Source: Chloroflexota bacterium (GTDB lineage Bacteria > Chloroflexota > Dehalococcoidia > GIF9 > JBFMDU01). Taken from it: a stretch of 64,000 nt of DNA. The DNA lies in contig JBFMDU010000005.1 of assembly GCA_040753815.1 (NCBI GenBank), forward strand, positions 85,350 through 149,349, in the 5' to 3' direction. A program made the translations under genes and the position numbers. This document shows, piece by piece, positions 34,750 through 53,937 of the stretch (within the stretch, counting starts at the first letter, position 1; each line of letters opens with the position of its first letter). The notes under the pieces are model-generated. The model ran no database searches. It had not been told where the DNA came from and saw only the letters and a program-made list of their open reading frames with translations.

Positions 34750-35172
34750 TTAGATGTACCAGTTGATGGTCGCGTCACTTGCCAGAGGTAGGAACGTAGC
34801 CAGTCCCATGGTACCATCAACTTCCGAACGCAGGTCACTCCGGGCAATATTAAGTGCCGCCATTGCATTCGGGCAAGCGTATATCTTCAACCCGAGAACC
34901 CTGGCATCTGCCAACTGCGTTTCCAGTGTCTGGATGCCGCCTGTCGCCAATCCACGCTGAATACGTTCCTTAGTCAACGGCGAAGTCTCGTCACCCATTT
35001 GCATCAGACGGTTGCCAACAAAACGGCCTAAAGCCCCGTAAGTAAGGAGGACATATACTTCCATACCGGACGCAAGCGCCACCTGCGCCAGAGACAGGGC
35101 GTAACTCACCCTGTCGTAAGCTTCACTGTGGAGAATGATAGCAACCCGCTTTCCCTCAGTGCGGGCCCCCAT
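34750..35172 (-). CDS. DsrE/DsrF-like (DrsE_2) protein
   Basis: VAIILHS...ALSLAQVALASGMEVYVLLTY, KIYACPNAM, GLATFL...INWYI. Confidence 0.8.
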   Translation of the reverse strand: MGARTEGKRVAIILHSEAYDRVSYALSLAQVALASGMEVYVLLTYGALGRFVGNRLMQMGDETSPLTKERIQRGLATGGIQTLETQLADARVLGLKIYACPNAMAALNIARSDLRSEVDGTMGLATFLPLASDATINWYI

Positions 35173-35182
35173 AGTCACTGTC

Positions 35183-35671
35183 TTAGTTTCGCCTATTCCG
35201 AATAGTATCGGCCCAGCGCAGTAGCGGTACACCGGCGCCCCGGGACTCAGCGTAATGCGTCCCGAGATCATCTAGTTGGCCCGGTGATAACCGTTCGGTA
35301 AGTATGTTGAGACCGTCGCAGTTACTCACATGCACCAGCAGTGCCCTGGCCGCCTTAGACACCGCCTTCCTTTCTTCTCCAGAAAGCGTTGACTGGGACA
35401 GCAGTCTGGCCGCCGTCTTGGCAGTCTCGATGGCTCCATCATGTTCGCCTATGAGGGTGTCCACATAATCACCCAGAAATTCCCGCAGGGTCGGATAGAG
35501 GGATTCCTCTTCATAGCGAAAATGGGGGCCAACCAGCGTATCAATGTCGCCTAGAATTTTACGGGCTTTATCCAGGTCCCCGACCTCGGCGGCCCCGGCC
35601 AGATTCAAAAGGCCGTCACGAACCTTCCGGTGATCCTCCCGGAATTCGACGATTGGGTCAAGCTTTGCCAT
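35183..35671 (-). CDS. Hemerythrin-like (HHE) protein
   Basis: FREDHRKV, PHFRYEEESLYP, GEHD, VHVSNCDGL. Confidence 0.82.
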   Translation of the reverse strand: MAKLDPIVEFREDHRKVRDGLLNLAGAAEVGDLDKARKILGDIDTLVGPHFRYEEESLYPTLREFLGDYVDTLIGEHDGAIETAKTAARLLSQSTLSGEERKAVSKAARALLVHVSNCDGLNILTERLSPGQLDDLGTHYAESRGAGVPLLRWADTIRNRRN

Positions 35672-35683
35672 CTTCCTTCCTCC

Positions 35684-36925
35684 TTATTTCGTTTTCTTAA
35701 TTTTCACTATCCAGTCCTGCGGGCCTTTCTGCTCGTACTCCCACTGATAAGCGTCCTTATATTCGGCCTCAAACTGGTAGTGGAGCGGTTTGGGGTCGTG
35801 GTCGTTAATAATCCTCAACGTTTCGCCAGGCCTCAAGGCATCCCAGTTCTCAAATATCTTGTCATGCCGCAGGAAAGGCGGCAGGCTCCTCAAGTCCAGT
35901 GTAACCACCTTAGGTCCCTCCTCATGATGTTCTTTCCCCGGTGTAAAACAACAATATCCAATCCGATCGCACGCCTTCTTAATCTCTGCCCATTCTCCAT
36001 CGGACAGCACCTGAAGCGCTATCTGATAGAGGATGTTATCCTCCTTGAAAATATGACCCTCAAGCTCCTGAGTGAGGAATTCCCCGGCATCTATAACCCG
36101 TGTTTTGAATTCGCTGAATGGAGTATCCTCAGCGTTGTGGCTGGCCCCGTATAGTTCCTTTTTCTTCTGCCGCAGGTCCACATGCTCTGCTTTCATAATT
36201 TGCGGCGGCTCGACCACGTCGTGCTTCTCCAGCACCGGGAACAGTACCTCTTCCTCGCGCTGGTGATGACTTTCGGCTTCAACTAGGTGATGAGCGATGT
36301 CCTTCAGCCTTTCCAGATCACCGCCCAGGTCGGCAAGGTTGTCCTTATCCTTCAACCCCTCCACAATGGTCTTGAGCTCAGACAAATTGCGCAGGATGAC
36401 CTTATGCTCCTCCATAAAAGTATGGATCGGGTGCCCTGGCGGCGCTTCAAGTTTCTGGGCCACCAGGCTCTCCCTCATGATATCCAGGTGGACATCGCAC
36501 AGGCTTTTCCTGATATCCTCGTGAGAAACCCCTTCCCGGATTAACTCCTGCTCCAGCCGTCCCAGCGTCCCAGCGTCCACCGTTTCCAGCAACTTCCTGG
36601 CCTTGTTCTTAGCTTCCTGAGAGACCTGTCCCTCTTTCAACTCCTTAAGTAATTGCCTGAACTGCGCCTTCTTCTCGTCCTCCGGGCCGGTACCGGTTCG
36701 GACTACCTTCAAAATCCACTCGTCCGGACCCTCTTTCTCGTATGTTACACTGAATTCACCCCGGGCCTTGAGCATATAGACCAGCGGCACCGGATTAAAC
36801 TCCACGACAATTCTCAAGGTTTCGCCTTCAGCCAGTTCCTCGATGGCCGGGAAAATAACCTGTTCTCTCTGACCATGCTCCAGCTTTCTTACATCAACTG
36901 TTCTTGCCGTATTAGTCGTAGTCAT
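35684..36925 (-). CDS. DUF2249-DUF438-hemerythrin-DUF2249 protein
   Basis: N- and C-terminal LDLR/DVR...NDHDPKPL domains; CDVH; HPIHTFMEEH; HHQREEEVLFP; HIFKEDNILY. Confidence 0.85.
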   Translation of the reverse strand: MTTTNTARTVDVRKLEHGQREQVIFPAIEELAEGETLRIVVEFNPVPLVYMLKARGEFSVTYEKEGPDEWILKVVRTGTGPEDEKKAQFRQLLKELKEGQVSQEAKNKARKLLETVDAGTLGRLEQELIREGVSHEDIRKSLCDVHLDIMRESLVAQKLEAPPGHPIHTFMEEHKVILRNLSELKTIVEGLKDKDNLADLGGDLERLKDIAHHLVEAESHHQREEEVLFPVLEKHDVVEPPQIMKAEHVDLRQKKKELYGASHNAEDTPFSEFKTRVIDAGEFLTQELEGHIFKEDNILYQIALQVLSDGEWAEIKKACDRIGYCCFTPGKEHHEEGPKVVTLDLRSLPPFLRHDKIFENWDALRPGETLRIINDHDPKPLHYQFEAEYKDAYQWEYEQKGPQDWIVKIKKTK

Positions 36926-36985: not shown

Positions 36986-37001
36986 TACGACTATTGTCGT
37001 A
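36986..37001. promoter_or_regulatory. Crp/Fnr-type palindrome TACGAC-TATT-GTCGTA
   Basis: Perfect 6-bp arms about 60 bp upstream of the DUF438/hemerythrin gene; recurs across the island. Confidence 0.7.
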
Positions 37002-37158
37002 CTAAACTTTCCTCCGTAAATCAGACCCAAGCTACCAGTTCTTAGAGTTCTTCGCTGCGATAAGGAAGCTCACCCTGGTGTAAGGGTATTGGTCCAGCGT
37101 CTCAGTAGCTAAATCAGTCCAAGACGGACCGGGGTGATGGCGTTAGCAATCTTAAAGA

Positions 37159-37190
37159 GAAGGGGCCTAGCTCTACCGCAAGGCCCCTTA
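37159..37190 (-). terminator. Stem-loop after nirK
   Basis: AAGGGGCCT...AGGCCCCTT inverted repeat. Confidence 0.5.
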
Positions 37191-37198
37191 ACAGATTC

Positions 37199-38308
37199 CT
37201 AGTGACCCATGACCGGTTTGCCACTGCTGTCCGGCGGCGCTTCGCGCGGGCCCTTGTAGATTTCAGGATTGTCCAGACCCGATACTTTAAGTATGCCGAG
37301 CGCCCCTTTATCCATGGCACGGGATATAGCGTGATCAACAAGAACGAAGTCCCCGGGCACTTCTAACTTCAAATCCACTACCACCGCACCACCCGGCGGC
37401 ACCAGTGTCGTTTGGATACCCTGCTGGGGTGAAGATATGAGGTCTCCCATGAGGTACACGCGGTCGAAGATTTCCCCGATGATATGAAAGGACGAAATCA
37501 GGTTAGGCCCACCGACTCCAAAATAGATGCGGATAGTCTCACCAACATTAGCTTTGAGGGCGTGATCCCCGGTCAATCCATGGAACCTTCCATTGAACAA
37601 GACGTAAGTCGGCTTCTCGTCCTTGACCGCCTCCGTATCGAAAATCTGATGCCCCTTGGTTCCGGCTGGCCACTTGGTGTAAAAATCTCCCTGCATCACA
37701 TAGAACTCTTTATCGACTGGAGGTAGTCCTCCCTTCGGCTCCACCAGTATCAGCCCGTATAGGCCGTTGGCAATGTGCCAGGCGACATTAGGGATAGCAC
37801 AATGGTATATGTAGAGCCCGGGGGAAAGGGCTTTGAATTCGAAGCTGGTTTCTTGCCCTGGTGGGGTTCTGGTTGCCACAGCACCACCGCCAGGACCGGT
37901 AACGGCGTGGAAATCAACATCGTGGTTCTGCGGGTTAGACGCTGCGTTCTTAAAGTTCACCTTGACTGTATCGCCTACCATAACACGGAAAAACGGCCCG
38001 GGAACCTGCCCGTTAAACGTCCAGTAGGTGTAGGTAGTGCCATCCTCTATCTCGGCGACGAGTTCTTTAGCTTCCAGGCTAATCTCAACCCTTGTCGGCG
38101 TGGTCCGTTTCAACGGCGGTGGAAGGTCAGTCACAGACCTTGAAATGTATGGTACGTCAACTTGCCTGGCTGGCCCGGGCTTCTCCGTTCTGGCCACAGT
38201 AATCGAAGCCGGCGAGAATAAGCCGCCCAGTAAAATGCCGGTAATTATGCCCACCAGGGCAACTGCAATTGCAGTATAAACAAGTCTTCTTCTTTCACTG
38301 ATCGCCAT
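37199..38308 (-). CDS. nirK: Copper-containing nitrite reductase (AniA-like), N-terminal membrane anchor
   Basis: WTFNGQVPGP, HDVDFHA, GLYIYHCA...WHIANGLYG, SSFHIIGE, LVDHAISR. Confidence 0.93.
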   Translation of the reverse strand: MAISERRRLVYTAIAVALVGIITGILLGGLFSPASITVARTEKPGPARQVDVPYISRSVTDLPPPLKRTTPTRVEISLEAKELVAEIEDGTTYTYWTFNGQVPGPFFRVMVGDTVKVNFKNAASNPQNHDVDFHAVTGPGGGAVATRTPPGQETSFEFKALSPGLYIYHCAIPNVAWHIANGLYGLILVEPKGGLPPVDKEFYVMQGDFYTKWPAGTKGHQIFDTEAVKDEKPTYVLFNGRFHGLTGDHALKANVGETIRIYFGVGGPNLISSFHIIGEIFDRVYLMGDLISSPQQGIQTTLVPPGGAVVVDLKLEVPGDFVLVDHAISRAMDKGALGILKVSGLDNPEIYKGPREAPPDSSGKPVMGH

Positions 38309-38318
38309 GTTTTCCTCC

Positions 38319-41174
38319 TTAAATGGCCGCCGAAAGCGCCCAGACGGCCGCCATAGTCATGATAAATATGAAAGTCCCTATGGGAAGAAAGGCTCTAAAA
38401 GCCGTTTCTCTATCCGGCAGGAGCCGCAATGCCAGCTTGTATGCCGCAAAGATACTGAACACGAACCCGACCGTGACCATGAGCATTTGCATGATGTATG
38501 TCTGGTCGGCGCTCATGAGCTGCTGGACAGTGATCCCTTCCGGGATGACGCGGTTGAAGGGGAAATCCTGGGCCAGTGCCCGAATAACATCAAACACCGC
38601 CCCCCACGTACGGAATACATGGTCAAGAATATCGGCAAGGAATTTCATCCCGGCCAGCGGTAGTAAAGCATAACCAAAGTGAATAAAGAATTCCTTTACT
38701 GTCTTGTTTTTCATTCCACTGAACAGTTTTGAAAGATAGCTGAACCCGAATCCCAAACCAAGAGTCGCTGATATGCCTCCCAGGTATAACGCAATCACGC
38801 TCACAACACGAGGCCAGTCGTTGGGAGGTTCGCCAGCAGGCAGGACAAGCTTCAACACCGACCTTAAAGGCGACATGTAAAGCACCAGCAGTAGCGAGAC
38901 AATGGTGACCAGTGACGTGATGATGAGCGAGGCTACCGATTCATCCAGCTTGGCCGTAGTCCTCCCCCATAGGTCCAGCCCTGGTTTCCGGAACCCTATT
39001 TTCAGATTATAGTTGGGACATGCCTTAATACACTCGGTGCAGAGGATGCAGTTCAGATTCCGATCAACGCGCTCAGCGAACGGAGAATAACCACAATTCC
39101 AACAGCGTCCGCTTTCTAAAACCGCCGCGGCGTCATCCAGTCCTTTTTCAACTTCCCGGAACGACGTCTGACGTACGTTTGCTTCGAGCAAAGGCATGAT
39201 TGTCCTGGCTTTGAACTCAGCCGCCATTGCTGTCCCAGCACCGTCGTAACTGGCTGAAGTCCTGCCTTTCCTCAGGTCCATCCCTCTTAGATACCGTTCA
39301 ATCGAAACCGCCGCCTCTCTCCCGTCAGATATCGCATGGACAACATCGGCCGGCCCTCTTACCGCATCACCCCCGGCGAAGACGCCCGGCATATCGGTTT
39401 GCATCGTCAGCATATCAACTGAGAGGTACCCCGGTTCAGTGTATTTAAGTTCCGTCGCCAACCCCCGACCGTCTACTGATTGCCTGATAGCAACAATAAC
39501 GTTATCAACCTCAATTGCAAAGTCAGACACACTAACTGGCGTGAGACGCCGCTGATCATCCGCTTCCGGCTCACCAGCTTTCACATTAATACACTCAATA
39601 CCAGTCACCCGATTGCCGTTCGATAGTATGTTAATCGGCGCCGCTAGGTAATAGAACTTAATCCCTTCTGCCTCGGCGGCCTGTATCTCAGAAGCCAGCG
39701 CAGACAAGTCTTCACGTGACTGGCGGCTTATTACCGCGACTTCACCCGCGCCAAGCCGCCGCGCAACCCGGGCGGAGTGAATCGCAGCGTTCCCACTGCC
39801 AATGATACCCACTCGTCTTCCAATCTCGATAGTTCCGTTTACATTGACATCCCGGAGGAAATCTAGAGCGTTAATAACACCGGTATTCTCCTCACCCGGA
39901 ATACCTGGCTTCTGGCTGACCCCAGCGCCGATCCCCACGAAAACGGCCCGGTAGCCCTGCTGGAATAACGCCCCGATATCTTTAACCGGGGAACCAGTCT
40001 TGATTTCCACCCCCAAGCGCTTGATGTATTTTATCTCTCCATCGAGGATGTTCTTGGGCAGTCGGTAGCCTGGTATGCCGTACCGGAGGAGACCACCGGC
40101 TTCCGGCGCGGCTTCGAAGACCGTGACCGGGTAGCCCCGCTTAACCAGGTCATAAGCGCAGGTTAGCCCCGCTGGCCCGGACCCGACGACGGCCACCCGG
40201 TCGGAATGCTTTGCTCTCACCGGTTTGACCTTCTCTTCCCCCATCGCTAGGAACTGGTCTGCCATGTAGCGCTTAATATCGCGGATGGTCACGTTCCCAT
40301 CAACCTTCGCCCTCTCACATCCGATTTCACAGGGATGAGTGCAGACTCGTCCCAGCGTGCCTACCAGGGCCGTGGTCTTACGATGAAGTTCCACACCCTC
40401 GCGGTACCTGCCCTGCGCCGCAAGCTGAATGTAGCCAGCGCTGTCCACACCGGCAGGGCATGTCGCCTGACATAAGGGATACCCTTTCGAATCGATGGTG
40501 AAATCGCAGTGCCGGAGCATCATCGGGCAACCATAAGCCTGCTCGCTGCCGTTTATGCAAGCCTTCGCCTTACACTTGCGGCAGACTATCTCGCGCTTCC
40601 TACGGACTTCGAACGGAGCGGCCATCGAACTCATGCCAATAAAGACGGTCAGCGGACAAAGGTATAAACAAAAGGTCCGCCTTTCAAAGAAGAGATTTAT
40701 CCAGACCGGCCCGAGTATCATTACCGTAATCAACCCGGCGGTCAAAGCCGGGCTATTAGAAATACCGTAGCCGGTATCAAGAAAAATGAAGACCACAAAG
40801 AATACGATGCCTATCCACAGGTTGCGCAGGCGCCGAGGGTACTTAAAGTTGAATCCCAGCCCCCATTTCCTCTTCCACCACAGGCTCAGCCTCTGAAACC
40901 ACTCGCCGGCAACTCCGAAGGGACACATTATGCACCAACCCCGACCCACCAAAATGAAGAGCACGATGAGGAGTCCCCACCACACCACCCAGGTAAAAAC
41001 GGTACCGAAGTTGAAGGCCGGGTTGGAAACCCCCCAGAAGAGGGAGGCCGCGGCGATGATAAAAACTAAAAACGCCGGCGCCACCAGCAGAAACTGGAAA
41101 TAGCGGCGGGTAATAAGAAACTTCAGGGCACGCGCTTCAAGCAGGTTGGTAAGAATAACCTGTAGTTTTTTCAT
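38319..41174 (-). CDS. NapH/MauN-like membrane polyferredoxin containing an inserted GltD-like FAD/[4Fe-4S] oxidoreductase module
   Basis: N-terminal TMs with GRGWCIMCP and RTFCLYLCP; CQATCPAG, GRVCTHPCEIGC, VGSGPAG, GLLRYGIPGYRL, GVFAGGD, RCWNCG; then NCILCTECIKACP and C-terminal TMs. Confidence 0.88.
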   Translation of the reverse strand: MKKLQVILTNLLEARALKFLITRRYFQFLLVAPAFLVFIIAAASLFWGVSNPAFNFGTVFTWVVWWGLLIVLFILVGRGWCIMCPFGVAGEWFQRLSLWWKRKWGLGFNFKYPRRLRNLWIGIVFFVVFIFLDTGYGISNSPALTAGLITVMILGPVWINLFFERRTFCLYLCPLTVFIGMSSMAAPFEVRRKREIVCRKCKAKACINGSEQAYGCPMMLRHCDFTIDSKGYPLCQATCPAGVDSAGYIQLAAQGRYREGVELHRKTTALVGTLGRVCTHPCEIGCERAKVDGNVTIRDIKRYMADQFLAMGEEKVKPVRAKHSDRVAVVGSGPAGLTCAYDLVKRGYPVTVFEAAPEAGGLLRYGIPGYRLPKNILDGEIKYIKRLGVEIKTGSPVKDIGALFQQGYRAVFVGIGAGVSQKPGIPGEENTGVINALDFLRDVNVNGTIEIGRRVGIIGSGNAAIHSARVARRLGAGEVAVISRQSREDLSALASEIQAAEAEGIKFYYLAAPINILSNGNRVTGIECINVKAGEPEADDQRRLTPVSVSDFAIEVDNVIVAIRQSVDGRGLATELKYTEPGYLSVDMLTMQTDMPGVFAGGDAVRGPADVVHAISDGREAAVSIERYLRGMDLRKGRTSASYDGAGTAMAAEFKARTIMPLLEANVRQTSFREVEKGLDDAAAVLESGRCWNCGYSPFAERVDRNLNCILCTECIKACPNYNLKIGFRKPGLDLWGRTTAKLDESVASLIITSLVTIVSLLLVLYMSPLRSVLKLVLPAGEPPNDWPRVVSVIALYLGGISATLGLGFGFSYLSKLFSGMKNKTVKEFFIHFGYALLPLAGMKFLADILDHVFRTWGAVFDVIRALAQDFPFNRVIPEGITVQQLMSADQTYIMQMLMVTVGFVFSIFAAYKLALRLLPDRETAFRAFLPIGTFIFIMTMAAVWALSAAI

Positions 41175-41749
41175 CTTATCCAGCGCCGCGCAACGGCAGT
41201 GAAACCGCCGAAAACGACGACAACCAGCGCCGCGCTGGCAAATGGCAGGTATTTAGTCATCCCACCACCGGCTTCCCCGATTATAAGATGCGCCTTCATG
41301 TAGGGATGGCCGATACCGCAAAACACCGTGCAGTACATCGCGTATGTCCCCTCGGAAATATCGGCCGGTATCGTGACGCGGCGCGTTATCTTCTCCCCTG
41401 GCGGCAGATCCATGTTGATACCCAGTTCATTAATCGCAAAACCGTGGGTGATATCCTCGCTCTGAAGCGTCAGCATAATATTTTCCCCACGGTTTACCTT
41501 GATGGCCCTGGGTTCAAATTCCCATTGCTGAGCCTTCAGTTCAAACTCCCTGACCCCATTAACCATCCTACCTTCCGATATGCTCACGGCGGCCACATTA
41601 TGGACGCCATACGCCATACCGAAGGTGATCAGGATGCCGATAACCGCGACTATAGCAGCAATAAGCGGCACTTTGTTGAAGACGCCGCTGCTGTTCGAAA
41701 CCATCTGTGGGTCAGCCCCGCTGTTGGTCATCTTTACAAATATCCACAT
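41171..41749 (-). CDS. Membrane-anchored CuA cupredoxin (Cox2/NosZ C-terminal-like)
   Basis: EDITHGF and CTVFCGIGHPYM (complete CuA ligand set); N- and C-terminal TM helices. Confidence 0.88.
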   Translation of the reverse strand: MWIFVKMTNSGADPQMVSNSSGVFNKVPLIAAIVAVIGILITFGMAYGVHNVAAVSISEGRMVNGVREFELKAQQWEFEPRAIKVNRGENIMLTLQSEDITHGFAINELGINMDLPPGEKITRRVTIPADISEGTYAMYCTVFCGIGHPYMKAHLIIGEAGGGMTKYLPFASAALVVVVFGGFTAVARRWIR

Positions 41750-41816
41750 ACCTTTATTTTCTCAACCCGATTGAACGACCATCCTGGTTAACATAATGGA
41801 ATATCTGACCTGTTCA

Positions 41817-41878
41817 TAGGACTTTTGTCGTAATTCTAAAACCTGGTGGCGCCGAAGCCTTTTGGGACAAAAGTCGTA
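41817..41878. promoter_or_regulatory. Two Crp/Fnr-type boxes in a divergent promoter
   Basis: TAGGAC-TTTT-GTCGTA (41817-41832) and TGGGAC-AAAA-GTCGTA (41863-41878). Confidence 0.65.
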
Positions 41879-41942
41879 GCCGCAAATCAAATAACCGCGT
41901 ATCGTACGGAACACCAAGCCTTTCGAAGAGGAGTACCGTAAA

Positions 41943-42437
41943 GTGGATATCAGGAAAGCTCTGACAGATGCCATGGAAGAATATTTCAATGGCGATACGA
42001 AGAGAATAAACCATGCCCGCAAAGTGACCGAATATGCCGAGAAACTAATCGACCTGGAAAAAGGAGACGGTGTAATTGTGCTGGGAGCATCAGTCCTCCA
42101 CGACATCGGCATTCACGAGGCGGAGAGGAAATATAACAGCACCGCCGGGAAATACCAGGAAATTGAGGGGCCGCCTATCGCTCGCAGCATATTAAATAGA
42201 CTCGGATTCCAGCCCGAGCAAATCGATGAAATATGCAACATCATTGCTCATCACCACAGCCCCGGAATAATCAATACCCAAAACTTCAAGATACTCTATG
42301 ACGCTGACTGGCTGGTGAATTTAAGAGATGAATACGATATCAAGGACCGGCAAAAGCTGACGAACATCATTGATCGCGTCTTCCTAACCGATACCGGCAA
42401 GTCCATGGCGCGGGCGATATACCTGGGAAAACACTGA
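41943..42437 (+). CDS. HD-domain phosphohydrolase
   Basis: RINHARKV, VLHDIG, AHHH, LYDAD. Confidence 0.9.
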   Translation: MDIRKALTDAMEEYFNGDTKRINHARKVTEYAEKLIDLEKGDGVIVLGASVLHDIGIHEAERKYNSTAGKYQEIEGPPIARSILNRLGFQPEQIDEICNIIAHHHSPGIINTQNFKILYDADWLVNLRDEYDIKDRQKLTNIIDRVFLTDTGKSMARAIYLGKH

Positions 42438-42495
42438 CAACAGACGAACTACGGGTAAAGCCACAAATTCGTACCGACAAGTATACTGCCTGCAC

Positions 42496-43215: not shown

Positions 43216-43288
43216 CGTCCACCACTTAGGAATATCGTGATTCCCGGCAGTCTATGTTTTCTGTTCTCAGGCTAACAACCATGCCAAC

Positions 43289-43795: not shown

Positions 43796-43892
43796 TTTCT
43801 ACTTTTATTCCTCTTCCTCGATTATCCCCTTCCAAGAGCCGGTGTGGTTATAACCTCGTTGGAAAATATAGTTAACCTTCCCCCGACTAAAC

Positions 43893-44484: not shown

Positions 44485-44535
44485 ATTCTATGGTAGTATT
44501 TCGATAGCCATACATAACTTTCGAGATTCTTACTG

Positions 44536-45201: not shown

Positions 45202-45217
45202 TGCGACAAAAGTCGTA
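45202..45217. promoter_or_regulatory. Crp/Fnr-type box TGCGAC-AAAA-GTCGTA
   Basis: Upstream of the ferredoxin/NOR operon. Confidence 0.65.
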
Positions 45218-46221: not shown

Positions 46222-46644
46222 ATGGAAAAACACGAACGAGTCTGGCTGGGAATCCTGTGTGTCGTCTTTATCATCGTCAACGCCATCACCATCTCACCGC
46301 TGGTCCCCTGGCAGGAGTGGCAGGTCTGGTCAAAACCAGTCCCGGAAAAGATAATCCCGGTCGAGGTGGAAAATTACCGCTTCAAGCTCCCTCCACAGGG
46401 AATCGAGGCCAAAGCCAACCAGTACGTGGAGTTCGTCGCCACATCGAAGGACGTGACCTACGGTTTCGGGGTTTTCCGGCAGGATGGCTCCCTGGTTTTC
46501 CAGATGCAGGTCATACCCGGCCGTGAGAGCCGGCTTGCCTGGAAATTTGACGCCCCCGGCGTCTACGATGTCCGCTCCACCGAATACTCCGGGCCAAGAC
46601 ATCCGGAGATGTTCGTCAAGAACGCCATCCGGGTAACGGCATAG
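46222..46644 (+). CDS. Heme-copper oxidoreductase subunit II lacking CuA ligands
   Basis: One TM plus cupredoxin fold; DVTYGF (His->Tyr) and STEYSGPRHPEM (both Cys->Ser). Confidence 0.88.
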   Translation: MEKHERVWLGILCVVFIIVNAITISPLVPWQEWQVWSKPVPEKIIPVEVENYRFKLPPQGIEAKANQYVEFVATSKDVTYGFGVFRQDGSLVFQMQVIPGRESRLAWKFDAPGVYDVRSTEYSGPRHPEMFVKNAIRVTA

Positions 46645-46657: not shown

Positions 46658-48364
46658 ATGCTGAAATTAGGCTGGCAAGAGAAATGGACACTAAGGTACG
46701 CAGTGGTCGCCCTCTTATTCTTAGCCCTGGCCGGTATCGAAGGCGTCATGATGCGTTCGCAATTAATATCGCCAACTTCACTGGAGAGCCTGGAAACGAC
46801 ACTGGCGGCACTCCGTGGCGGCAGTCAGTCGGGGCCGGCTGAGCTGTTTTACTCCGTCCTGACCGCCCACCCCATCGTCGGCATCTACGGCTTCGCCTAC
46901 ATGGCCGTCTTCGGCGCTTTTTACTTCCTGGTGCCATTCCTGCTGAACAAGCCAGTCCGCCACAAGCGCCTGGTTCCGGTCAATTTCTGGCTCCAGATTG
47001 CCGGTGTGCTGGTCTGCTGGGGAGCCGGTTTCTTCGCCCTGTTCAATGCCACCTACACCCTCTACTGGCCCTTGCCGGTAGCCTACGACCGGGTGCCGCT
47101 AATAGGCAGTATCGTCTTCGGCTTCGGCCTTGCCTTAATTGAAGCTAACGTCCTGCTCTTCGTTTTCAATGTTTTCAGCACCGTACTCAGCAAAAGCAAC
47201 CCGCATCCTTACAGCTTCCGCCAATTCCTTGCCTCGGCTTTCGGCATACCCCGCCTGTTAAAGCTGTTCGGCAGGAAACCGGCCAACGGCGGCGAGGTCA
47301 ACTATAACGACCTTCCTGTCTTCGTCGTCGCTGTCGGGCGCGGGTCTATTGATACCGTTATTAACGCCATCGTTCTGCTGACCGCCGGTGTGCTCATGCT
47401 GGTCTATGGCCTACCCGCCCTTATCCAGGGCATCATGCTCAACTCCGGCGCTGTGGACGCCCTCATTTATAAGAACTTCTTCTGGTGGGGGCTGGACATG
47501 ATTGCCGATGGCAACGTTCTCATGTACGCCGCCGGCACCTGGTACCTGTTGGTCCCTCTATTGGTGGGCCGCAAGCTCTACGGCGAATCCGTGGTAAGAA
47601 CCGTCATCCTGGCCGACCTGCTGGTGTCCATGGGCGTCTGGAGTCACCATCTGCTGGCCGACCAACCCCAACCCTTCGGCCTCCGCCTCATCTCCGGCCA
47701 GTTCATCACCTGGGGTGAGTTCTTCACCATGGGTCTGACCATGTTCGCCATCCTGATGACCATCTGGCTGGCCAGACCGGTCAAGTTCACCGCGCCGCTT
47801 AAGTTCGTCCTCGCCTCGGTCTTCGGATTTGCCGTCGGCGGTATCGCCGGCATCACCCAGGCCAACGTCGGCCTTAACGTCGTTCTCCACAACACCCAGT
47901 GGGTTATCGGCACCCACGGCCACATGATGCTGTTAGGAGGGCTAGCATCACTGCTGTTCGCTGTGATTTATGCCCTTATCCCGATGCTGACCAAAGCCGA
48001 AATCTGGAGCCAGAAGCTGGTCAGCGTCCACCTAGGGCTGTGGCTGCCCGGCGCCGTCCTCATGGCTGACTCCATGGGGCTGGCTGGCATCGAGGGCATG
48101 TTGAGGCGGACGCTCTACTCGGGCGGCGAGTACCAGTTGCACATGATTGTCGCTACTCTTGGCGGCATCCTAATGGCCGCTGGTTTTACCGTTTTCCTGG
48201 TCAACGTCATCAAGACGCTGGGGCTGAAGAATGTGCTCGGACTGGTCTTACCGGAACAGTGGCTGATGCCAAAGCCAGCCGTAGCGGCAGGCGTTATCCC
48301 GGCTACTGGATTGCCTGAACCAGCGCCGGTTCCTGTGACTGTAATCCAGAACATCCAAAGATAA
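46658..48364 (+). CDS. Heme-copper superfamily subunit I, gNOR-type nitric oxide reductase
   Basis: TAHP (low-spin His), WWGLDMIADGNVL in place of WxxGHPxVY, VWSHHL, THGHMM; about 13 TM helices. Confidence 0.8.
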   Translation: MLKLGWQEKWTLRYAVVALLFLALAGIEGVMMRSQLISPTSLESLETTLAALRGGSQSGPAELFYSVLTAHPIVGIYGFAYMAVFGAFYFLVPFLLNKPVRHKRLVPVNFWLQIAGVLVCWGAGFFALFNATYTLYWPLPVAYDRVPLIGSIVFGFGLALIEANVLLFVFNVFSTVLSKSNPHPYSFRQFLASAFGIPRLLKLFGRKPANGGEVNYNDLPVFVVAVGRGSIDTVINAIVLLTAGVLMLVYGLPALIQGIMLNSGAVDALIYKNFFWWGLDMIADGNVLMYAAGTWYLLVPLLVGRKLYGESVVRTVILADLLVSMGVWSHHLLADQPQPFGLRLISGQFITWGEFFTMGLTMFAILMTIWLARPVKFTAPLKFVLASVFGFAVGGIAGITQANVGLNVVLHNTQWVIGTHGHMMLLGGLASLLFAVIYALIPMLTKAEIWSQKLVSVHLGLWLPGAVLMADSMGLAGIEGMLRRTLYSGGEYQLHMIVATLGGILMAAGFTVFLVNVIKTLGLKNVLGLVLPEQWLMPKPAVAAGVIPATGLPEPAPVPVTVIQNIQR

Positions 48365-48444: not shown

Positions 48445-49131
48445 GTGATAGCATCAAAGCCAATGGAACATAAAGAGCGCCGTACCCTGCTGGAACTTCT
48501 GGAACCAGACACCCGGGAGAAACTGCAGAGCATAACCCAGAAGAAGTCCTTTACTGCCGGGGAACAAATATTTCCCCAGGGCTCACCGCCAACAGCTATC
48601 TATTTCATAACCTGCGGACAGGTCAAGGTAGCGCGTACCACGCCCGATGGGCATGAGATTATCCTGTGTATGCCCGGCCCTGGCGATTCTTTCTGCCCGG
48701 TGACTTTACTTGACGGCGGGCCGCAACTGGGCATGGCCCAGGCCGTGACCGATACCGAGGTAATGCGGGTCGACAGCCGCCAATTCCTCGCCCTCTGCCG
48801 CGAGCGCCCGCAACTGCAGGCCTCGGTACAGCAGGCGTGCCTGGGCGAGGTGCGGCGACTCGTCCAGCGCATGGAACTGCTCTCTTTCCGCACTTTGAGA
48901 CAGCGGCTGTCTACCGTCCTGCGGCATACCATCCGACGCCAGCGGTCCGGTCCGTGCCAGCCAGCAGAAATACGCATTACCCAGCAGGAACTGGCCCAAC
49001 TGGCCGGAGGCTCCCGGGAAAGCACCTCGCGGCTCCTCGCCATGTGGCAGCGGGAAGGCATCGTATCGCTCGGCCGGGGCCGCATCACCATTCTCGACCC
49101 AGACCGGCTTGAATCCCTATCTCGCGAGTAG
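48445..49131 (+). CDS. Second Crp/Fnr-family regulator
   Basis: GQVKVARTTPDGHE, HTH ITQQELAQLAGGSRESTSRLL. Confidence 0.92.
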   Translation: MIASKPMEHKERRTLLELLEPDTREKLQSITQKKSFTAGEQIFPQGSPPTAIYFITCGQVKVARTTPDGHEIILCMPGPGDSFCPVTLLDGGPQLGMAQAVTDTEVMRVDSRQFLALCRERPQLQASVQQACLGEVRRLVQRMELLSFRTLRQRLSTVLRHTIRRQRSGPCQPAEIRITQQELAQLAGGSRESTSRLLAMWQREGIVSLGRGRITILDPDRLESLSRE

Positions 49132-49172: not shown

Positions 49173-49188
49173 TGTGACAAACCTCACA
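49173..49188. promoter_or_regulatory. Perfect CRP-consensus box TGTGA-CAAACC-TCACA
   Basis: Centre about 31 bp upstream of GATAAT (49211), i.e. class II activation geometry for the 49253 operon. Confidence 0.75.
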
Positions 49189-49252
49189 GACATATGGTAA
49201 TACCTGTTACGATAATATGCTGTAATTAATCAGATGTGAGGAGGACTCGAAG

Positions 49253-49873
49253 ATGCTTGACCAGATTATTCTGCTGGCGACGGGGCTAACGGCTATCTAT
49301 CTCATCTGGCGGTTCGTCCAGGACTACCGACGCAAGGGAAAACCGGCACATGACATCGCCTATATTGTAGCTTTTGCCGTACTCCTGATAGCCGGGCTTC
49401 TGCTTATCGGCTTCGGATACGGCGTCCTCGGGTCGCCTCTGGTCGTGACCGTAGCTGTCCTAATCCCGGCTGGCATTGCCCTGGGGCTGGTTTCGGAATA
49501 CACGACTAAATGGCGGCTTGCCTATCTTATCTTCGCCATTGTTGGGCTTGTGGCTATCGCTGTTACCCGCTTCACCGGACCGGCCCTGGTTGCCACCATC
49601 ATCCTTGTCATCGTCCACTCCGTCAGTGGTCTGCTTATCTTCGCCCTACCCATAGTTGCCGTCAACAAAGGCACGGCTCCCAGTGGTTTCATCGGCGTCA
49701 CTGTCGGCGGTGCCCTTATCGGCATCGGCGGCATTGCCATGGCGGCACTCAAGACCGGCGGCCAGCTTCTCTTCTTCAGCGCACCGGTGGTCTTTGCTAT
49801 CTTAGCACCGCTTCTGCTGCTAATGACCCTGGCCTTTACCTGGGGCTTTGTCAAGAAAATCAAAGCGGCTTAG
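49253..49873 (+). CDS. Polytopic membrane protein (about 7 TM), unknown function
   Basis: Highly hydrophobic 206 aa; AGGAGG RBS. Confidence 0.8.
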   Translation: MLDQIILLATGLTAIYLIWRFVQDYRRKGKPAHDIAYIVAFAVLLIAGLLLIGFGYGVLGSPLVVTVAVLIPAGIALGLVSEYTTKWRLAYLIFAIVGLVAIAVTRFTGPALVATIILVIVHSVSGLLIFALPIVAVNKGTAPSGFIGVTVGGALIGIGGIAMAALKTGGQLLFFSAPVVFAILAPLLLLMTLAFTWGFVKKIKAA

Positions 49874-49914
49874 ACTGACTTCATACCGGTATCCCAGCAA
49901 CGGAAAGTATTGAT

Positions 49915-51393
49915 ATGCAGGCTCTTGCCAGCAGGTTCGATTATCTCTTCCACTCAACCAGGGGCCTGGCGCTGGTGGCCATTGCTCTCATCGGTCTCGT
50001 CACCGCCGTCTTCGGTACACTCTCCGGACCGATGGCCGACCTCGGCCTCAAAGACATCTCCGTCCGCATCTTCGGCATGCAGTTGGTCGAGGCCGAGCGT
50101 GAGGCGCGCATCATCATGCTCTACCACACCATCGCCATGGCGGTAATCGCTATCGAGACCTATTTCATCACCGCCATCGTCCCGATGAAGAAGAGCCAGC
50201 AGGCTAATATCAACGCCACTATAACCGTCGGCTACATCACGTCGCTTGTCTTTGGTCTGCTCTTCGCCTACTTCGGCGGCAACTTCATCTTCCACGGCCT
50301 TTTTATCTTCGGACAGTCTCTGGTCTTCTTCGCCGGCCTCCTGCTGGCCAAAGCCCTCTGGCCCTGGAGCAAGGAGTACCGCCAGCCAAATCGCGACTAC
50401 GCCCGCACCCGCGGTGGCATTGACCTGGAGCGCGCCGCCTTCTTCACCATGGCCGTCTGTACGCTCGGTTCGGCGCTGTTCGGGGCGATACCCGGCTCGA
50501 TGTTCGGCACCGGCTTTGAATCTTTCCTGGCCGAAGACATCGTACGCGAGCCGCACAAAACGACCCTTCAACTCTCGGTCATCGGCCACCTCCATATCAT
50601 GCTGACGCTTATCGCCGTTGCCCTGTCCCTTATCCTTGTCCGGTGGATAGACTTCAAGGGCTGGATGCACAAAGTATCCATGCCGCTTATCATCGCCGGT
50701 TCCATCGTTGTTACCCTGGGCGTCTGGCTGGTGGTCCCATTCGAGGCCATCGCCCACTACATCATCTACGCCGGCTCGGTCATCGTCATGCCGGCGGCGC
50801 TTTTTCTGGTGATATTCGCCTGGCGCAAGCTCATCCGTAACCGTTTTGCACAGTTAAACATCAAGAACTGGACCTTCTGGCAGGGAGTAAGCGCCCTGCT
50901 CCACGACCCGCTCAAGTTCGGCACCTTCTGGCAGGTCGTCTACATGAACTTCGTCGTCACCTTCGTCGGCATCTTCATGGCCATCCGGCTCGACAAAGTG
51001 ATGCGCATGATGCCGCTCCGCGAGGAGCGAATCACCCTGACTGGCCACTGGCACATCCTGGCCGGCATTATCGCCACCATTCTTCTGCTCTACTACGCCG
51101 ACCTCTCCGGCCTCAAAGGCAAGGTGAGGCAGTGGTTCGGCTGGCTGGTCATCGTCGGCTCCGACCTCGCTTTTGCCGCAGTCACACTATTCGAGACCAA
51201 ACGTCTCTACGTAGCCGAGTCTGCCCAACAGCCTCTGGTGAACATCACCATGCTGTTGACCGACGTCGGCCTGATTCTGGTCCTGCTGATCCTGGCGGCT
51301 TTCTTGGTCTACCGGCTGGTGGATCTCTTCCATAGCAAAGGCAGGTGGACTAAGGAGCTCGCCGTGGCCGAACCGCCGGAGGTGCGGCGATGA
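49915..51393 (+). CDS. About 12-TM membrane protein with three periodic His motifs (possible divergent HCO-fold protein)
   Basis: LYHTIAM, IGHLHIML and TGHWHIL spaced 156 and 153 aa apart. Confidence 0.75.
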   Translation: MQALASRFDYLFHSTRGLALVAIALIGLVTAVFGTLSGPMADLGLKDISVRIFGMQLVEAEREARIIMLYHTIAMAVIAIETYFITAIVPMKKSQQANINATITVGYITSLVFGLLFAYFGGNFIFHGLFIFGQSLVFFAGLLLAKALWPWSKEYRQPNRDYARTRGGIDLERAAFFTMAVCTLGSALFGAIPGSMFGTGFESFLAEDIVREPHKTTLQLSVIGHLHIMLTLIAVALSLILVRWIDFKGWMHKVSMPLIIAGSIVVTLGVWLVVPFEAIAHYIIYAGSVIVMPAALFLVIFAWRKLIRNRFAQLNIKNWTFWQGVSALLHDPLKFGTFWQVVYMNFVVTFVGIFMAIRLDKVMRMMPLREERITLTGHWHILAGIIATILLLYYADLSGLKGKVRQWFGWLVIVGSDLAFAAVTLFETKRLYVAESAQQPLVNITMLLTDVGLILVLLILAAFLVYRLVDLFHSKGRWTKELAVAEPPEVRR

Positions 51394-52292
51394 AGGGCGC
51401 TGTCATCCTGCTGATTGCAGTGACCCTGCTCGCAGTTGGCTGCTCCACCCCGGCGGCAACGACCCCGCCGCAGTTCGAGACCGGCGTTGACCCGGCCTCG
51501 TGGGCACGGGTACCCATCGGCGATTTCCTGATGGGACAACATGAACATAAGACCTCTGTCAACTACGATTACGAAATCATGGTGACGCCGGTAAGCAACG
51601 CCCAGTTTGCCCGGTACCTCAACTCGGCGTTGGCGGCAAGTAAGGTCAAGATTTCCGGCAACTTCGTTGTCGGCTACTACCCCGGAGACACGTTCCACGG
51701 CTACCGGCATGAGATGAGAATCGACCCCGGCGACTATCCTCATTTCCCACTCAGTGACCGTGACTCCCGGATGTCCTTCGATGGCAAGACTTTCACCGTC
51801 AAGCCTGGCTATGAGAACCACCCGGTGACCACAGTCACCTGGTTCGGCGCCAAGGCATACTGCGAGTCTATTGGAGGACGCCTTCCCACCGAAGCCGAAT
51901 GGGAAAAGGCCGCCCGCGGCACCGATGCCCGGCCTTTCCCCTGGGGCAACGGTATCACCCCGGCCAACGCCAACTACTACAACAGCCATGACCCGTTCGA
52001 GAAAGGCATCGGTGCTATCGGCAATACCACGCCAGTCGGCTTCTACAACGGCAAGGCCTATGATGGTTTCGCTACTGTCGACTCCCCAAGCCCCTACGGC
52101 CTGTACGATATGGCCGGCAACGTCTGGCAATGGACGGCGGATATTTATGAGGGTGTACACTATCGCTATCTCCGCGGCGGCAGTCACGCCGATTACGGTT
52201 ATAATCTGCGTGCATGGACGCGCAATAGCGTCCGTCCCGACTACTATGGCCCGAGCATCGGCTTCCGCGCCGTTCGGGACGTGAAGAAATAA
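51390..52292 (+). CDS. FGE-sulfatase/SUMF1-fold lipoprotein (NirV-like)
   Basis: Lipobox LAVGC; VSNAQF, HPVTTVTW, RLPTEAEWEKAARG, YDMAGNVWQW, RGGS, GFR; no catalytic Cys pair. Confidence 0.85.
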   Translation: MKGAVILLIAVTLLAVGCSTPAATTPPQFETGVDPASWARVPIGDFLMGQHEHKTSVNYDYEIMVTPVSNAQFARYLNSALAASKVKISGNFVVGYYPGDTFHGYRHEMRIDPGDYPHFPLSDRDSRMSFDGKTFTVKPGYENHPVTTVTWFGAKAYCESIGGRLPTEAEWEKAARGTDARPFPWGNGITPANANYYNSHDPFEKGIGAIGNTTPVGFYNGKAYDGFATVDSPSPYGLYDMAGNVWQWTADIYEGVHYRYLRGGSHADYGYNLRAWTRNSVRPDYYGPSIGFRAVRDVKK

Positions 52293-52294
52293 TC

Positions 52295-53173
52295 ATGGCA
52301 GTTTACTCTATGCCAGGACAGTTCGGGAGAAGGCTCAGGGCTTACTGGAGCCTGACCAAGAGCCTGCAGACGGCCCTCCTGCTGGCGACCGGCATTGCCG
52401 GCTATCTGAGCGCCCGCTGTCCTGTCTTTGCCTGGCAGACTGTGCTGGCCCTGGCCGCTAGCCTGTTCCTGGCCATCGCCGGCAGTACCGTACTCAACAT
52501 GGTCTATGACCGCGATATCGACTTCGCCATGTCCCGCACCTGCCGTCGTCCTTTACCTTCCAGACTGGTTTCACTCAGAGAAACGCTGACGGTGGGCCTA
52601 TTGCTGTCATTTGCCGGTGTTGCCTGGGCCTTTGTGATGAGCCCGCTTTATGGCACTATCGTTCTTGCCGGGGTCTTCTTCGACGTGGTTATTTATACTC
52701 TGTGGCTCAAGCGTCGGACGCCCTGGTCAATCGTCTGGGGCGGGCTGGCTGGAGGTATGCCCATCCTGGCCGGGCGCGCCCTCGGCACCGGACAAATCGA
52801 CCTGGCCGGATTGACGCTGGCCGTAGCGGTGCTTTTCTGGATACCGACGCACATCGTCACCTTCAGCATCAAGTACGCCGATGACTATAGAAACGCCGGA
52901 GTGCCGGTAATACCCAACGCTTACGGGCTAAAGGCGGCGCGGCTGGTGATTGCTGTTTCGACCTGTCTGGCGGCGGCCGCCATGCTGGCATCGGGGTGGC
53001 TCATCGGCATCCGCTGGGGATTCCTCTACGCCGTGTCCGGCCTTGGCGCGGTGCTCGTCGCTCTTGCTCTGGTCACCGTCATCAGGGCTTCCCCGAAGCT
53101 GAACTTTGCCCTTTTCAAGATGGCTTCGGTCTATATGCTGGCTTCGACGGCGGTCATCGCCGCCGGCGCCTGA
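52295..53173 (+). CDS. ctaB: Protoheme IX farnesyltransferase (heme O synthase)
   Basis: NMVYDRDIDFAMSRTCRRP, YTLWLKRRTP, GGMPILAG, FWIPTH, DDYRNAGVP. Confidence 0.92.
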   Translation: MAVYSMPGQFGRRLRAYWSLTKSLQTALLLATGIAGYLSARCPVFAWQTVLALAASLFLAIAGSTVLNMVYDRDIDFAMSRTCRRPLPSRLVSLRETLTVGLLLSFAGVAWAFVMSPLYGTIVLAGVFFDVVIYTLWLKRRTPWSIVWGGLAGGMPILAGRALGTGQIDLAGLTLAVAVLFWIPTHIVTFSIKYADDYRNAGVPVIPNAYGLKAARLVIAVSTCLAAAAMLASGWLIGIRWGFLYAVSGLGAVLVALALVTVIRASPKLNFALFKMASVYMLASTAVIAAGA

Positions 53174-53211
53174 CAATAAATGCGAATAAAATCAAGGGAG
53201 GTTGACGAGAT

Positions 53212-53937
53212 ATGAAATCGAAAACCGGTATGGTGCTGCGCATTGTGGCTATTGTCCTCATGGGCATGGCAACGGTGTTCACACTTTTAGGCGGACTTGG
53301 TACCGTCTGTATTGCATGGAACGCCGACAAGTACCCAGCGGCGGCATTTGGTGTATTCGTGCCTTTTATGCCCGTTTACCAGACATTCGTCTACACTAAA
53401 GTCATCACCGCCCTGATCATGTCGGCCGTTGTCTATGCCCTGGTGAAAGGCGATAAGTGGGCTTACTGGGGCGCGGTCGGGACGCTCGTCGTCGGTCTCG
53501 CCGCGGCCGCACTTCAGATGTTCTATACCAGCACCCTGAAAGGCGTTTCTTTCTTCCAGACGCCGCCGACCAATGTCCGCTTCTACATTACTCTGCTAAC
53601 TTTGGTCTTCTTCCTGATTCTACTTATCCCCGGTATTAAAGAGCGGGCCTCAATGAGCGGGCCGTGGAAGTCGAAGGGGACTGGTGCTATGACCGGCGGC
53701 GTGACTGCCATCGTCACCGGCATCATCGCCCTGACCACACCCTTCTGGACCGCGGAATCACACACCGTCGATGGCAATAACCTGGTCTATGTCTTCGAAA
53801 CACCACTGATGGTCTTCGGCTGGGTGGTACTCTTCACCGGCATCGTTCTGGTTACTTATGTCATCCTCGGCCCAAGCCGTGAGGCAGTAATCGCCTCACT
53901 AAAGAAATGGTTAAGGATAGCACCAGCGGCATCTTAG
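53212..53937 (+). CDS. Hypothetical membrane protein
   Basis: Six hydrophobic segments; GGGAGG RBS; last gene of the operon. Confidence 0.75.
   Translation: MKSKTGMVLRIVAIVLMGMATVFTLLGGLGTVCIAWNADKYPAAAFGVFVPFMPVYQTFVYTKVITALIMSAVVYALVKGDKWAYWGAVGTLVVGLAAAALQMFYTSTLKGVSFFQTPPTNVRFYITLLTLVFFLILLIPGIKERASMSGPWKSKGTGAMTGGVTAIVTGIIALTTPFWTAESHTVDGNNLVYVFETPLMVFGWVVLFTGIVLVTYVILGPSREAVIASLKKWLRIAPAAS

Follow-up and report, generated by a model that had tools for sequence, protein, structure and literature searches.

A composite nitrite and nitric oxide gene island with a candidate NAD(P)H-fed electron input in a Dehalococcoidia genome

How would a Dehalococcoidia bacterium reduce nitrite and nitric oxide (NO), and from which donor would the electrons come? 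This question is raised by positions 34750–53937 of a 64,000-nucleotide (nt) stretch of contig C5 (the window, at its full length) from a Chloroflexota metagenome-assembled genome (MAG). A reading made earlier from the letters of the window alone (the sequence-only reading) had described the region as one co-regulated nitrite/NO respiration block holding nirK, a gNOR-type haem-copper oxidoreductase (HCO), ctaB, a NirV-like protein, three hemerythrins, DsrE, a ferredoxin and two Crp/Fnr regulators. Listing of open reading frames (ORFs) and family scans with Pfam and NCBIfam located all of these genes. With slightly better than even confidence, we read the region as a composite nitrite/NO island in which an NAD(P)H-fed route would take nitrite to N2O, as an electron sink and for detoxification. 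Its module A would comprise an operon of a CuA cupredoxin, a NapH-like protein with a GltD-type insert (the fusion) and nirK, followed by hemerythrins and DsrE. Module B would run from the regulator gene crp1 through a ferredoxin, a 182-amino acid (aa) protein, a 34-aa peptide, subunit II and gNOR to crp2, a 206-aa membrane protein, the 492-aa protein h492, an FGE-domain lipoprotein, ctaB and a 241-aa membrane protein. The genome comprises 1.985 Mb in 23 contigs and is 89.7% complete and 0.44% contaminated. Its EF-Tu falls into one 90%-identity cluster with an NCBI protein that bears the label Dehalococcoidia bacterium. Lineage frequencies refer to 401 genomes sampled evenly across the class.

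Proposed electron input to the nitrite reductase

The sequence-only reading had proposed a non-canonical electron input. The candidate for it is an operon of three genes on the minus strand, transcribed from the cupredoxin towards nirK:

41171–41749, minus strand: CuA cupredoxin with a transmembrane (TM) helix at each end (COX2 and NosZ CuA-domain matches)
38319–41174, minus strand: NapH-like Fer4_5 polyferredoxin of 951 aa with 10 TM helices and an NfnB/GltD-type insert (Pfam/NCBIfam)
37199–38308, minus strand: nirK, membrane-anchored two-domain copper nitrite reductase of the AniA/clade II type (TIGR02376)

The stop of the cupredoxin gene and the start of the fusion gene overlap at 41171–41174, and nirK begins 11 nt past the fusion stop.

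NirK scored 356.4 bits against TIGR02376, whose curated cut-off is 296.3. The His ligands of the type-2 copper (T2Cu) and the catalytic Asp and His are intact, with HDVDFH, YHC, SSFHI and LVDHA aligning to the motifs of 6tfd and 1kbv. At the type-1 copper (T1Cu) the axial Met is replaced by Leu (HIANGLYG vs HIANGMYG in the alignment with PDB enzymes), and the His-Cys-His-Met ligand set is thus incomplete. This Leu is encoded by CTA, two changes from ATG. It is shared by the five nearest homologues (66–69% identity), and Met occupies the position in 11 other NirKs of the same class as well as in all PDB enzymes shown. The axial Leu presumably raises the T1Cu potential. Compared with AniA of Neisseria (PDB 1kbv), the window NirK is ~60% identical over both cupredoxin domains and has in common with it the T2Cu His ligands, the catalytic Asp and His, the T1Cu His-Cys-His ligands and attachment to the membrane. 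It differs from AniA in that the anchor is an N-terminal TM helix and not a lipid, in the Met-to-Leu change, which extends across a small clade, and in its gene neighbourhood, where the genes preceding nirK encode a CuA cupredoxin and a NapH-like protein in place of a pseudoazurin or cytochrome c donor.

The cupredoxin carries the complete CuA set H-x(n)-C-x3-C-x3-H-x2-M, whose ligands H102, C140, C144, H148 and M151 are invariant in seven cupredoxin homologues. Upstream of nirK, the fusion can be divided into two parts. Its residues 1–222 and 700–941 align (62 and 58% identity, respectively) to a 474-aa NapH-like protein without GltD on contig L100, in which the motifs GWCIMCPFG, FCLYLCPL, CRKCKAKAC...GCP and CILCTECIKACP are kept; the Fer4_5 domain was detected by PF12801 at 28.4 (cut-off 22). 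Residues ~225–700, lying between the two ferredoxin Cys motifs, make up a complete NfnB/GltD-type module for FAD, NAD(P)H and two [4Fe-4S] sites, composed of Fer4_20 and Pyr_redox_2 with both Rossmann motifs. The nearest solved structures of this insert are of the NfnB/GltD type, with matches at 1e-53 to 1e-107, and no solved-structure relative of the membrane part was found. Family scans of the operon found neither a NapG-like gene nor an FMN_bind domain. Among 5.8 billion proteins, about a dozen full-length clusters have the architecture of the fusion.

With NapH, NosR, NosH and CcoG of the Fer4_5 type, the fusion shares TM helices with CxxCP and Cx3CP motifs and two ferredoxin-type Cys clusters in a cytoplasmic loop. 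It also has in common with them an association with periplasmic N-oxide reductases; NosZ, which NosR serves, contains CuA. Unlike these proteins, the fusion has 10 TM helices and a complete NADPH-flavoprotein in the ferredoxin loop; it has no periplasmic FMN domain such as that of NosR, and in place of the NapG partner of NapH there is a stand-alone CuA cupredoxin. The insert has the NAD(P)H:FAD:2x[4Fe-4S] layout (Fer4_20 and Pyr_redox_2) of the NfnB, GltD and DPD modules. However, it is embedded in a membrane protein and is not a soluble subunit, so that its acceptor would be the membrane polyferredoxin.

From these gene identities, ligand motifs and operon overlaps we infer the following electron path. 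The cytoplasmic insert would oxidise NAD(P)H and pass the electrons through its two [4Fe-4S] clusters to the NapH-like membrane domain, where ferredoxin-type clusters and Cx3CP sites would take them up. This domain would reduce the membrane-tethered periplasmic CuA cupredoxin, which in turn would reduce the Leu-bearing T1Cu of NirK and, through it, T2Cu, where nitrite would be converted to NO. Further reduction of NO to N2O, the predicted end product, would be carried out by gNOR, with haem O supplied by CtaB.

Parts of this arrangement recur elsewhere. The order cupredoxin, Fer4_5 protein (470–474 aa, no GltD) and NirK with axial Leu was found on three unrelated contigs (L100, L101 and L102), and it is the same gene order as on the minus strand of the window. 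The genes 3′ of these nirK copies encode a DUF438-hemerythrin-DUF2249 protein (L101) or a hemerythrin and DsrE (L102). On contigs L085 and L086, a cupredoxin/fusion pair (56–59% identity) is located directly 5′ of a TAT-exported Nar/Nxr-like molybdoenzyme of ~1160 aa. The respective operons, at ~11000–18600 (L085) and ~7870–15700 (L086), additionally hold a Fer4_11 beta subunit, a NarJ-like chaperone, an EB_dh haem-b subunit, a ~320-aa protein and SCO1, and they are candidates for an NAD(P)H-fed periplasmic reductase of nitrate or a related oxyanion. On L103 the pair (58% identity) follows a divergently transcribed Crp-family regulator gene, and this 10-kb contig ends in a partial gene just beyond. 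In a Dehalococcoid-labelled MAG, the gene for a more distant fusion (44% identity) is separated from gNOR by 5 kb, and a fusion homologue, likewise more distant, stands beside a YtkA-like protein. Since the pair accompanies a different periplasmic reductase on L085 and L086, it looks like a portable electron-delivery module.

The cupredoxin/NapH-like pair could alternatively be a maintenance or maturation system, as NosR is for NosZ and CcoG for cbb3. It would then reduce copper or reactivate the enzyme and not act as the bulk donor, the catalytic electrons of NirK arriving from multihaem cytochromes. We regard this as rather unlikely. The Fer4_5 family does take in the cupric reductase CcoG and the maintenance factor NosR; multihaem cytochromes are encoded nearby, SCO1 copper chaperones accompany the pair in related operons, and the neighbouring YtkA-like protein of the distant homologue fits such a role as well. 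However, the Nar-like molybdoenzymes preceded by the pair on L085 and L086 have no copper site to mature, and SCO1 is accounted for by CuA assembly in the cupredoxin itself. The fully invariant CuA electron-transfer site and the tight translational coupling of the three genes also speak against a maturation role.

The gNOR operon and the HCO-fold/FGE pair

The second part of the island lies on the plus strand and encodes the predicted NO reductase:

44536–45198, plus strand: Crp/Fnr-family regulator 1, crp1 (cNMP_binding and HTH_Crp_2)
45296–45589, plus strand: 2x[4Fe-4S] ferredoxin (Fer4 families)
45552–46100, plus strand: Cys/His-rich protein of 182 aa, no family match, kept in contigs L082–L084
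46116–46220, plus strand: 34-aa ORF with a single TM helix (from translation), directly 5′ of subunit II
46222–46644, plus strand: gNOR subunit II, cupredoxin fold without CuA ligands
46658–48364, plus strand: gNOR-type HCO subunit I (PF00115)
48445–49131, plus strand: Crp/Fnr-family regulator 2, crp2
49253–49873, plus strand: membrane protein of 206 aa with ~7 TM helices, no family; homologue in L026, missing from L083
49915–51393, plus strand: h492, 492-aa protein with 12 TM helices and an HCO subunit I-like fold (alignment, AlphaFold2 model, Foldseek)
51390–52292, plus strand: FGE-sulfatase-domain lipoprotein, previously called NirV-like (PF03781, 139 bits)
52295–53173, plus strand: ctaB, haem O synthase (TIGR01473, 212.5 vs cut-off 210.3)
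53212–53937, plus strand: h241, membrane protein of 241 aa with 5–6 TM helices, no family; kept in L082–L083 and L026

Subunit I matched PF00115 with 212.9 bits (cut-off 34.8) and remained far under the cut-offs of all O2-reductase equivalogs. It has WWGLDMIADGN in place of the oxygen-reductase GHPEVY; in the profile alignment to COX1, G-L-D-M-V-A faces G-H-P-E-V-Y, so that the His column holds Leu and the next residue is Asp. Across 19 gNOR sequences L279, D280 and D284 are invariant. The cross-linked Tyr is replaced by A283, and H71, H330/H331 and H420/H422 are invariant, so that the HH and HxH ligands are still in place. Subunit II has STEYSGPRHPEM where the CuA motif CxExCxxxHxxM is expected and gave only weak COX2 and CoxB matches. 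Loss of the helix-VI His, an adjacent Asp, absence of the cross-linked Tyr and a CuA-less subunit II are the published defining features of gNOR (PMC11214002), a family proposed to reduce NO (PMC11214002, PMC3475470). The B-family-like window enzyme shares these features with the family as described by Murali et al. (2024, PMC11214002). These features agree with the gNOR assignment of the sequence-only reading, and the enzyme would accordingly act as an NO reductase.

Relatives of this gNOR occur in at least 588 species genomes, mostly of Anaerolineae, and also of Thermoproteota and Campylobacterota including Sulfurimonadaceae, to whose members the window subunit I is 44% identical. Work on the family is reportedly found in Hemp and Gennis from 2008 and Sievert from 2008. 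At 80 gNOR loci examined, subunit I is paired with subunit II in 75, a ferredoxin is near in 11, and nirK was found within 10 kb in none. The window locus therefore differs from other gNOR loci in its link to nirK. It also differs in its host, as the family is otherwise almost absent from Dehalococcoidia, and in the addition of the ferredoxin, the Cys-rich protein, the 34-aa peptide, the HCO-fold/FGE pair and ctaB. The 34-aa ORF reads MYVTDYIFWAYTTFLVAAAVFMAVFVSLVRKKRE, and a 34-aa gene was called at the same spot in L082–L084. In size and position it resembles subunit IIa of the ba3 oxidases.

The same HCO could be a high-affinity O2 reductase that gives micro-oxic protection within an oxygen and nitrosative stress cluster, nirK being unrelated cargo. 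Its B-family relatives are O2 reductases, hemerythrins can bind O2, and nirK is missing both from the closest relative and from six other gNOR-bearing Chloroflexota genomes, none of which holds a true nirK. However, Ala stands in place of the cross-linked Tyr that O2 reduction needs, the helix-VI His is lost, and the nirK operon bears two copies of the promoter box of the gNOR operon (see below). We therefore consider O2 reduction very unlikely.

The sequence-only reading had noted several unassigned membrane proteins in the block, and the family scans left three membrane proteins without a family (49253–49873, 49915–51393 and 53212–53937). For the second of them, h492, no Pfam match was obtained at E < 0.01. 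The family alignment shows 12 helices and seven invariant His, located in the predicted helices H59-88, H124-147, H217-244, H277-314 and H368-397, which we counted as TM2, TM4, TM6 (HLH), TM8 and TM10 (HWH). An AlphaFold2 model (pLDDT 74.7, pTM 0.79) gave Foldseek TM-scores of 0.52–0.59 to subunit I of ba3, cbb3 and cNOR, but at E of only ~1e-2. The family comprises 319 clusters among 1.84 billion representatives.

The gene for the FGE protein, whose lipobox LAVGC can be read from the sequence, starts within the stop of h492, which indicates translational coupling. In another organism, an h492-like protein and an FGE domain are naturally joined in one protein, P0368, and the pair is retained in the relative L083, which has no nirK. 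The partner of the FGE protein is therefore h492 and not NirK, which corrects the earlier NirV-like label. The nirK-nirV operons of Proteobacteria similarly combine a periplasmic FGE-sulfatase-fold protein with nitrite/NO genes; however, the FGE gene is here coupled to a 12-TM HCO-fold gene and lies 13 kb from nirK on the opposite strand, not directly downstream of it. Two further members of the h492 family, P0440 and P0515, are fused to periplasmic PD40/WD40-type beta-propellers in place of FGE. Within the proposed pathway the pair would serve as an accessory or second membrane metalloprotein. That it is a membrane metalloenzyme of NO metabolism not described so far is a further reading, which we consider unlikely.

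History and promoter boxes of the two modules

The remaining genes of the island surround the nirK operon:

34750–35271, minus strand: DsrE/DsrF-like protein (DsrE_2; PF13686, 34 bits vs cut-off 25); the true start is probably an internal Met, giving a gene at 34750–35172 and ~140 aa
35183–35671, minus strand: hemerythrin-domain protein of 162 aa (PF01814)
35684–36925, minus strand: DUF2249-DUF438-hemerythrin-DUF2249 protein of 413 aa (Pfam matches), with weak YtfE/RIC resemblance
41943–42437, plus strand: HD-domain protein of 164 aa (PF01966, 33.8 vs cut-off 22)
42496–43215, minus strand: Asp/Glu/hydantoin racemase-family protein (PF01177) in a segment of low GC (0.476)
43289–43795, minus strand: hemerythrin-domain protein of 168 aa (PF01814, 74.7 bits)
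44028–44411, minus strand: h127, 127-aa protein without Pfam or NCBIfam match

As read from its sequence, h127 consists of two ~60-aa repeats, each with a Cys near the start and CQLGCF at the end. An ORF at 41762–42112 (minus strand) is spurious: it has no family match, and the real gene there is that of the HD-domain protein. The ORF at 33839–34705 (plus strand), also without a family match, was rejected as antisense to a real gene or of low complexity.

We compared the island with contigs of 79–84% nucleotide identity that were independently assembled from three data sets. These share the cobalamin flank, the DUF2249-hemerythrin gene and the stretch crp1-gNOR-crp2-h492-FGE-ctaB-h241. Three segments are present in the window only and not in the relative: 34739–35692 (DsrE, hemerythrin), 37000–44532 (nirK, fusion, cupredoxin, HD gene, racemase, hemerythrin, h127) and 49193–49920 (the 7-TM protein). 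Thus, of the nirK cassette the relative holds the DUF2249-hemerythrin gene only. The extra segments are GC-poorer, with 0.514 overall and 0.476 for 41750–44532. We infer that the island is a composite of two modules, a gNOR core and a nirK cassette, with different histories, and not the one block that had been supposed.

On either side the borders are distinct. The left flank (28500–34474), syntenic with the relative, encodes a CobQ-like protein, CobD/CbiB, an aminotransferase and a FecCD/ABC transporter for cobalamin salvage and biosynthesis. To the right, synteny stops at a gene on the minus strand (54036–59438) for an 1800-aa protein with an N-terminal MauE/DoxX membrane domain, a papain-family C1 peptidase and a lectin-like domain.

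The island is unusual for the lineage, as the sequence-only reading had supposed. A true NirK was found in 26 of the 401 class genomes and in none of 20 genomes of the same order, and gNOR in none of the 400 other genomes of the class. The gNOR tree, which also holds Sulfurimonadaceae and other members, puts the window and its relative near the base of the Chloroflexota clade, beside two Dehalococcoid-labelled MAGs and outside Anaerolineae. From this position, the gNOR core appears to be old and rare in the lineage and not a recent import from within Anaerolineae. An assembly or binning artefact, with an island from another organism such as an Anaerolineae, would fit the frequent occurrence of gNOR in Anaerolineae and its absence from all other genomes of the class that were sampled, and it could account for the low GC across 41.7–44.5 kb. 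We consider this extremely unlikely. The tetranucleotide composition of the 162-kb contig C5 correlates with that of the rest of the genome at r = 0.992, the cobalamin flank and the gNOR core were assembled independently in three data sets, and the tree position lies outside Anaerolineae. We saw no sign of the mis-binning that would have undone the earlier proposal.

To assess co-regulation we analyzed the palindrome GAC-W4-GTC, with the extended consensus ACGAC-W4-GTCGT. The 1.985-Mb genome contains 27 such sites, six of which fall within 8.2 kb of the island, against ~0.1 expected. All six are in promoter regions. They are given here, without strand, together with one further palindrome:

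36987–37000: box ACGACTATTGTCGT, 5′ of the DUF2249-hemerythrin gene; the same position is occupied in L083
41818–41831 and 41864–41877: two boxes in the divergent promoter of the cupredoxin operon and the HD gene
43894–43907: box 5′ of the gene for the 168-aa hemerythrin
44470–44483: box in the divergent promoter of h127 and crp1
45203–45216: box GCGACAAAAGTCGT, directly 3′ of crp1 and 5′ of the ferredoxin-gNOR operon
49173–49188: perfect TGTGA-N6-TCACA palindrome TGTGACAAACCTCACA, 3′ of crp2; kept in L083 and L007

The box 3′ of crp1 occupies the matching position in the close relative as well as in several Anaerolineae loci (L083, L026, L007, L017 and L020), and the later-added nirK operon bears the same boxes as the older gNOR core. 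The share of the genomic boxes that falls in island promoters and their conservation in relatives support the co-regulation that had been proposed. Control of the island by one Crp/Fnr-type regulon is part of the explanation we favour, and we hold it with the same slight preference.

The Crp/Fnr regulators had also been credited with boxes of their own. A shared box exists, but it is GAC-W4-GTC and not of the FNR type: the canonical FNR box TTGAT-N4-ATCAA has no match at up to one mismatch, and with two mismatches its matches are barely above chance and outside promoters. TGTGA-N6-TCACA was likewise rejected as a regulon motif, since its genome count is at chance level, and only the single perfect intergenic site was retained. 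Beyond the island, copies of the extended ACGAC-W4-GTCG box occur at C9:35310, C10:47414 and C19:27725, where NO-related neighbours are not evident; the copy at C9:35310 is identical to the box 5′ of the DUF2249-hemerythrin gene.

Physiological role and significance

Along the proposed route the electrons exit the cytoplasm and protons are consumed outside, so that the route itself would build no proton-motive force. We therefore read it as sink and detoxification and not as proven respiration, the term used by the sequence-only reading. Most likely, the island would provide a strict anaerobe with an NAD(P)H-regenerating electron sink and with detoxification of nitrite and NO. The pathway is also truncated. 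None of the eight molybdenum enzymes of the genome (≤1023 aa) is NarG/NapA-like, and NosZ, a second HCO and cytochrome bd were not found in the 89.7%-complete genome; with neither nar/nap nor nosZ, the set for complete denitrification is not present. Among the multihaem cytochromes no NrfA- or HAO-type nitrite reductase was found.

Other redox proteins are encoded outside the island. Immediately left of the window (C5:72922–86249, which takes in window positions 1–900 on the minus strand) lie multihaem c-type cytochromes with 5, 9, 7 and 9 CxxCH motifs, including a NapC/NirT-type protein and an 897-aa surface-type protein. Further cytochromes with eight and six haems are located on C4 and C18, respectively. 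The multihaem cytochromes are unusual for small Dehalococcoidia genomes, and their presence suggests extracellular or periplasmic electron transfer. At C16:60593–62218 a molybdopterin oxidoreductase frame of 1023 aa includes one in-frame TGA that is read through, and it is probably a selenocysteine-containing formate dehydrogenase.

Alternatively, complex I could reduce a (mena)quinone pool from which nitrite and NO would be respired with energy conservation. In that case the NapH-like domain would be a quinol dehydrogenase as in NapGH, gNOR a quinol:NO oxidoreductase, and the GltD insert would merely balance the redox state. We hold this to be improbable, although it keeps some real weight. 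The genome encodes NuoLMN, along with a second ctaB-like gene; a NapC/NirT-type cytochrome adjoins the window; NapH is known to oxidise menaquinol (PMC3475470), and quinol oxidation has been proposed for gNOR (PMC11214002). In addition, the GltD-less 474-aa form accompanies the same type of NirK. The search for quinone synthesis, which the sequence-only reading had suggested along with one for nar/nap and nosZ, gave a MenA-like prenyltransferase at 95 bits, below its cut-off of 102. However, MqnA was not found and no match reached the MenB cut-off in the 89.7%-complete genome. A men operon around the MenA-like gene was rejected, as its neighbours are housekeeping genes only. Finally, the insertion of a complete NADPH-oxidising module right into the ferredoxin loop favours direct electron supply from the cytoplasm.

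Several points weigh against an NAD(P)H-fed sink all the same. The roles of gNOR, the NapH-like family and the cupredoxin are predicted ones, and so is the electron path across the membrane through NapH/NosR-type proteins. The exchange of Met for Leu at T1Cu could slow the transfer from T1Cu to T2Cu. The 474-aa form means that the module can use another donor, possibly quinol; complex I subunits, the NapC/NirT-type cytochrome and the MenA-like gene make a quinone pool possible, just as CcoG and NosR do for a role in maturation. Because the MAG is 89.7% complete, the absences listed above are provisional.

Under the NAD(P)H-fed reading, the NfnB-type module in the NapH-like protein might even perform flavin-based electron bifurcation, which we consider unlikely. 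The downhill flow of one NADPH electron to NirK (nitrite/NO ~+350 mV), by way of the membrane clusters and CuA, would drive the second electron onto a low-potential ferredoxin. If so, a quinone-poor anaerobe that lacks a proton-pumping chain would conserve energy through nitrite reduction, and the same module would serve the Nar-like enzymes of the relatives.

The enzyme families gNOR, NirK and CtaB are already known, so that the earlier suggestion of an undescribed system does not apply to these. It holds for their combination: synteny comparisons found the exact gene combination of the window at no other locus. New are the module for electron input, the NirK clade with axial Leu and the pair of HCO-fold and FGE proteins, as well as the way in which these come together under a single box in a lineage where they are rare. 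The HCO-fold/FGE pairing is rare and travels with gNOR, and the axial-Leu clade represents a natural experiment in tuning the T1Cu potential. Cupredoxin, fusion and NirK form a compact three-gene system that is testable in vitro. It bears on the electron supply of copper nitrite reductases in organisms without pseudoazurin or cytochrome c551, and on how NapH/NosR-type polyferredoxins acquire and hand on electrons; the flavoprotein in the ferredoxin loop is a Rosetta-stone hint that proteins of this type draw cytoplasmic reducing power. For the lineage, the island would add Dehalococcoidia to the possible sources of N2O, which, without nosZ, would be the end product.

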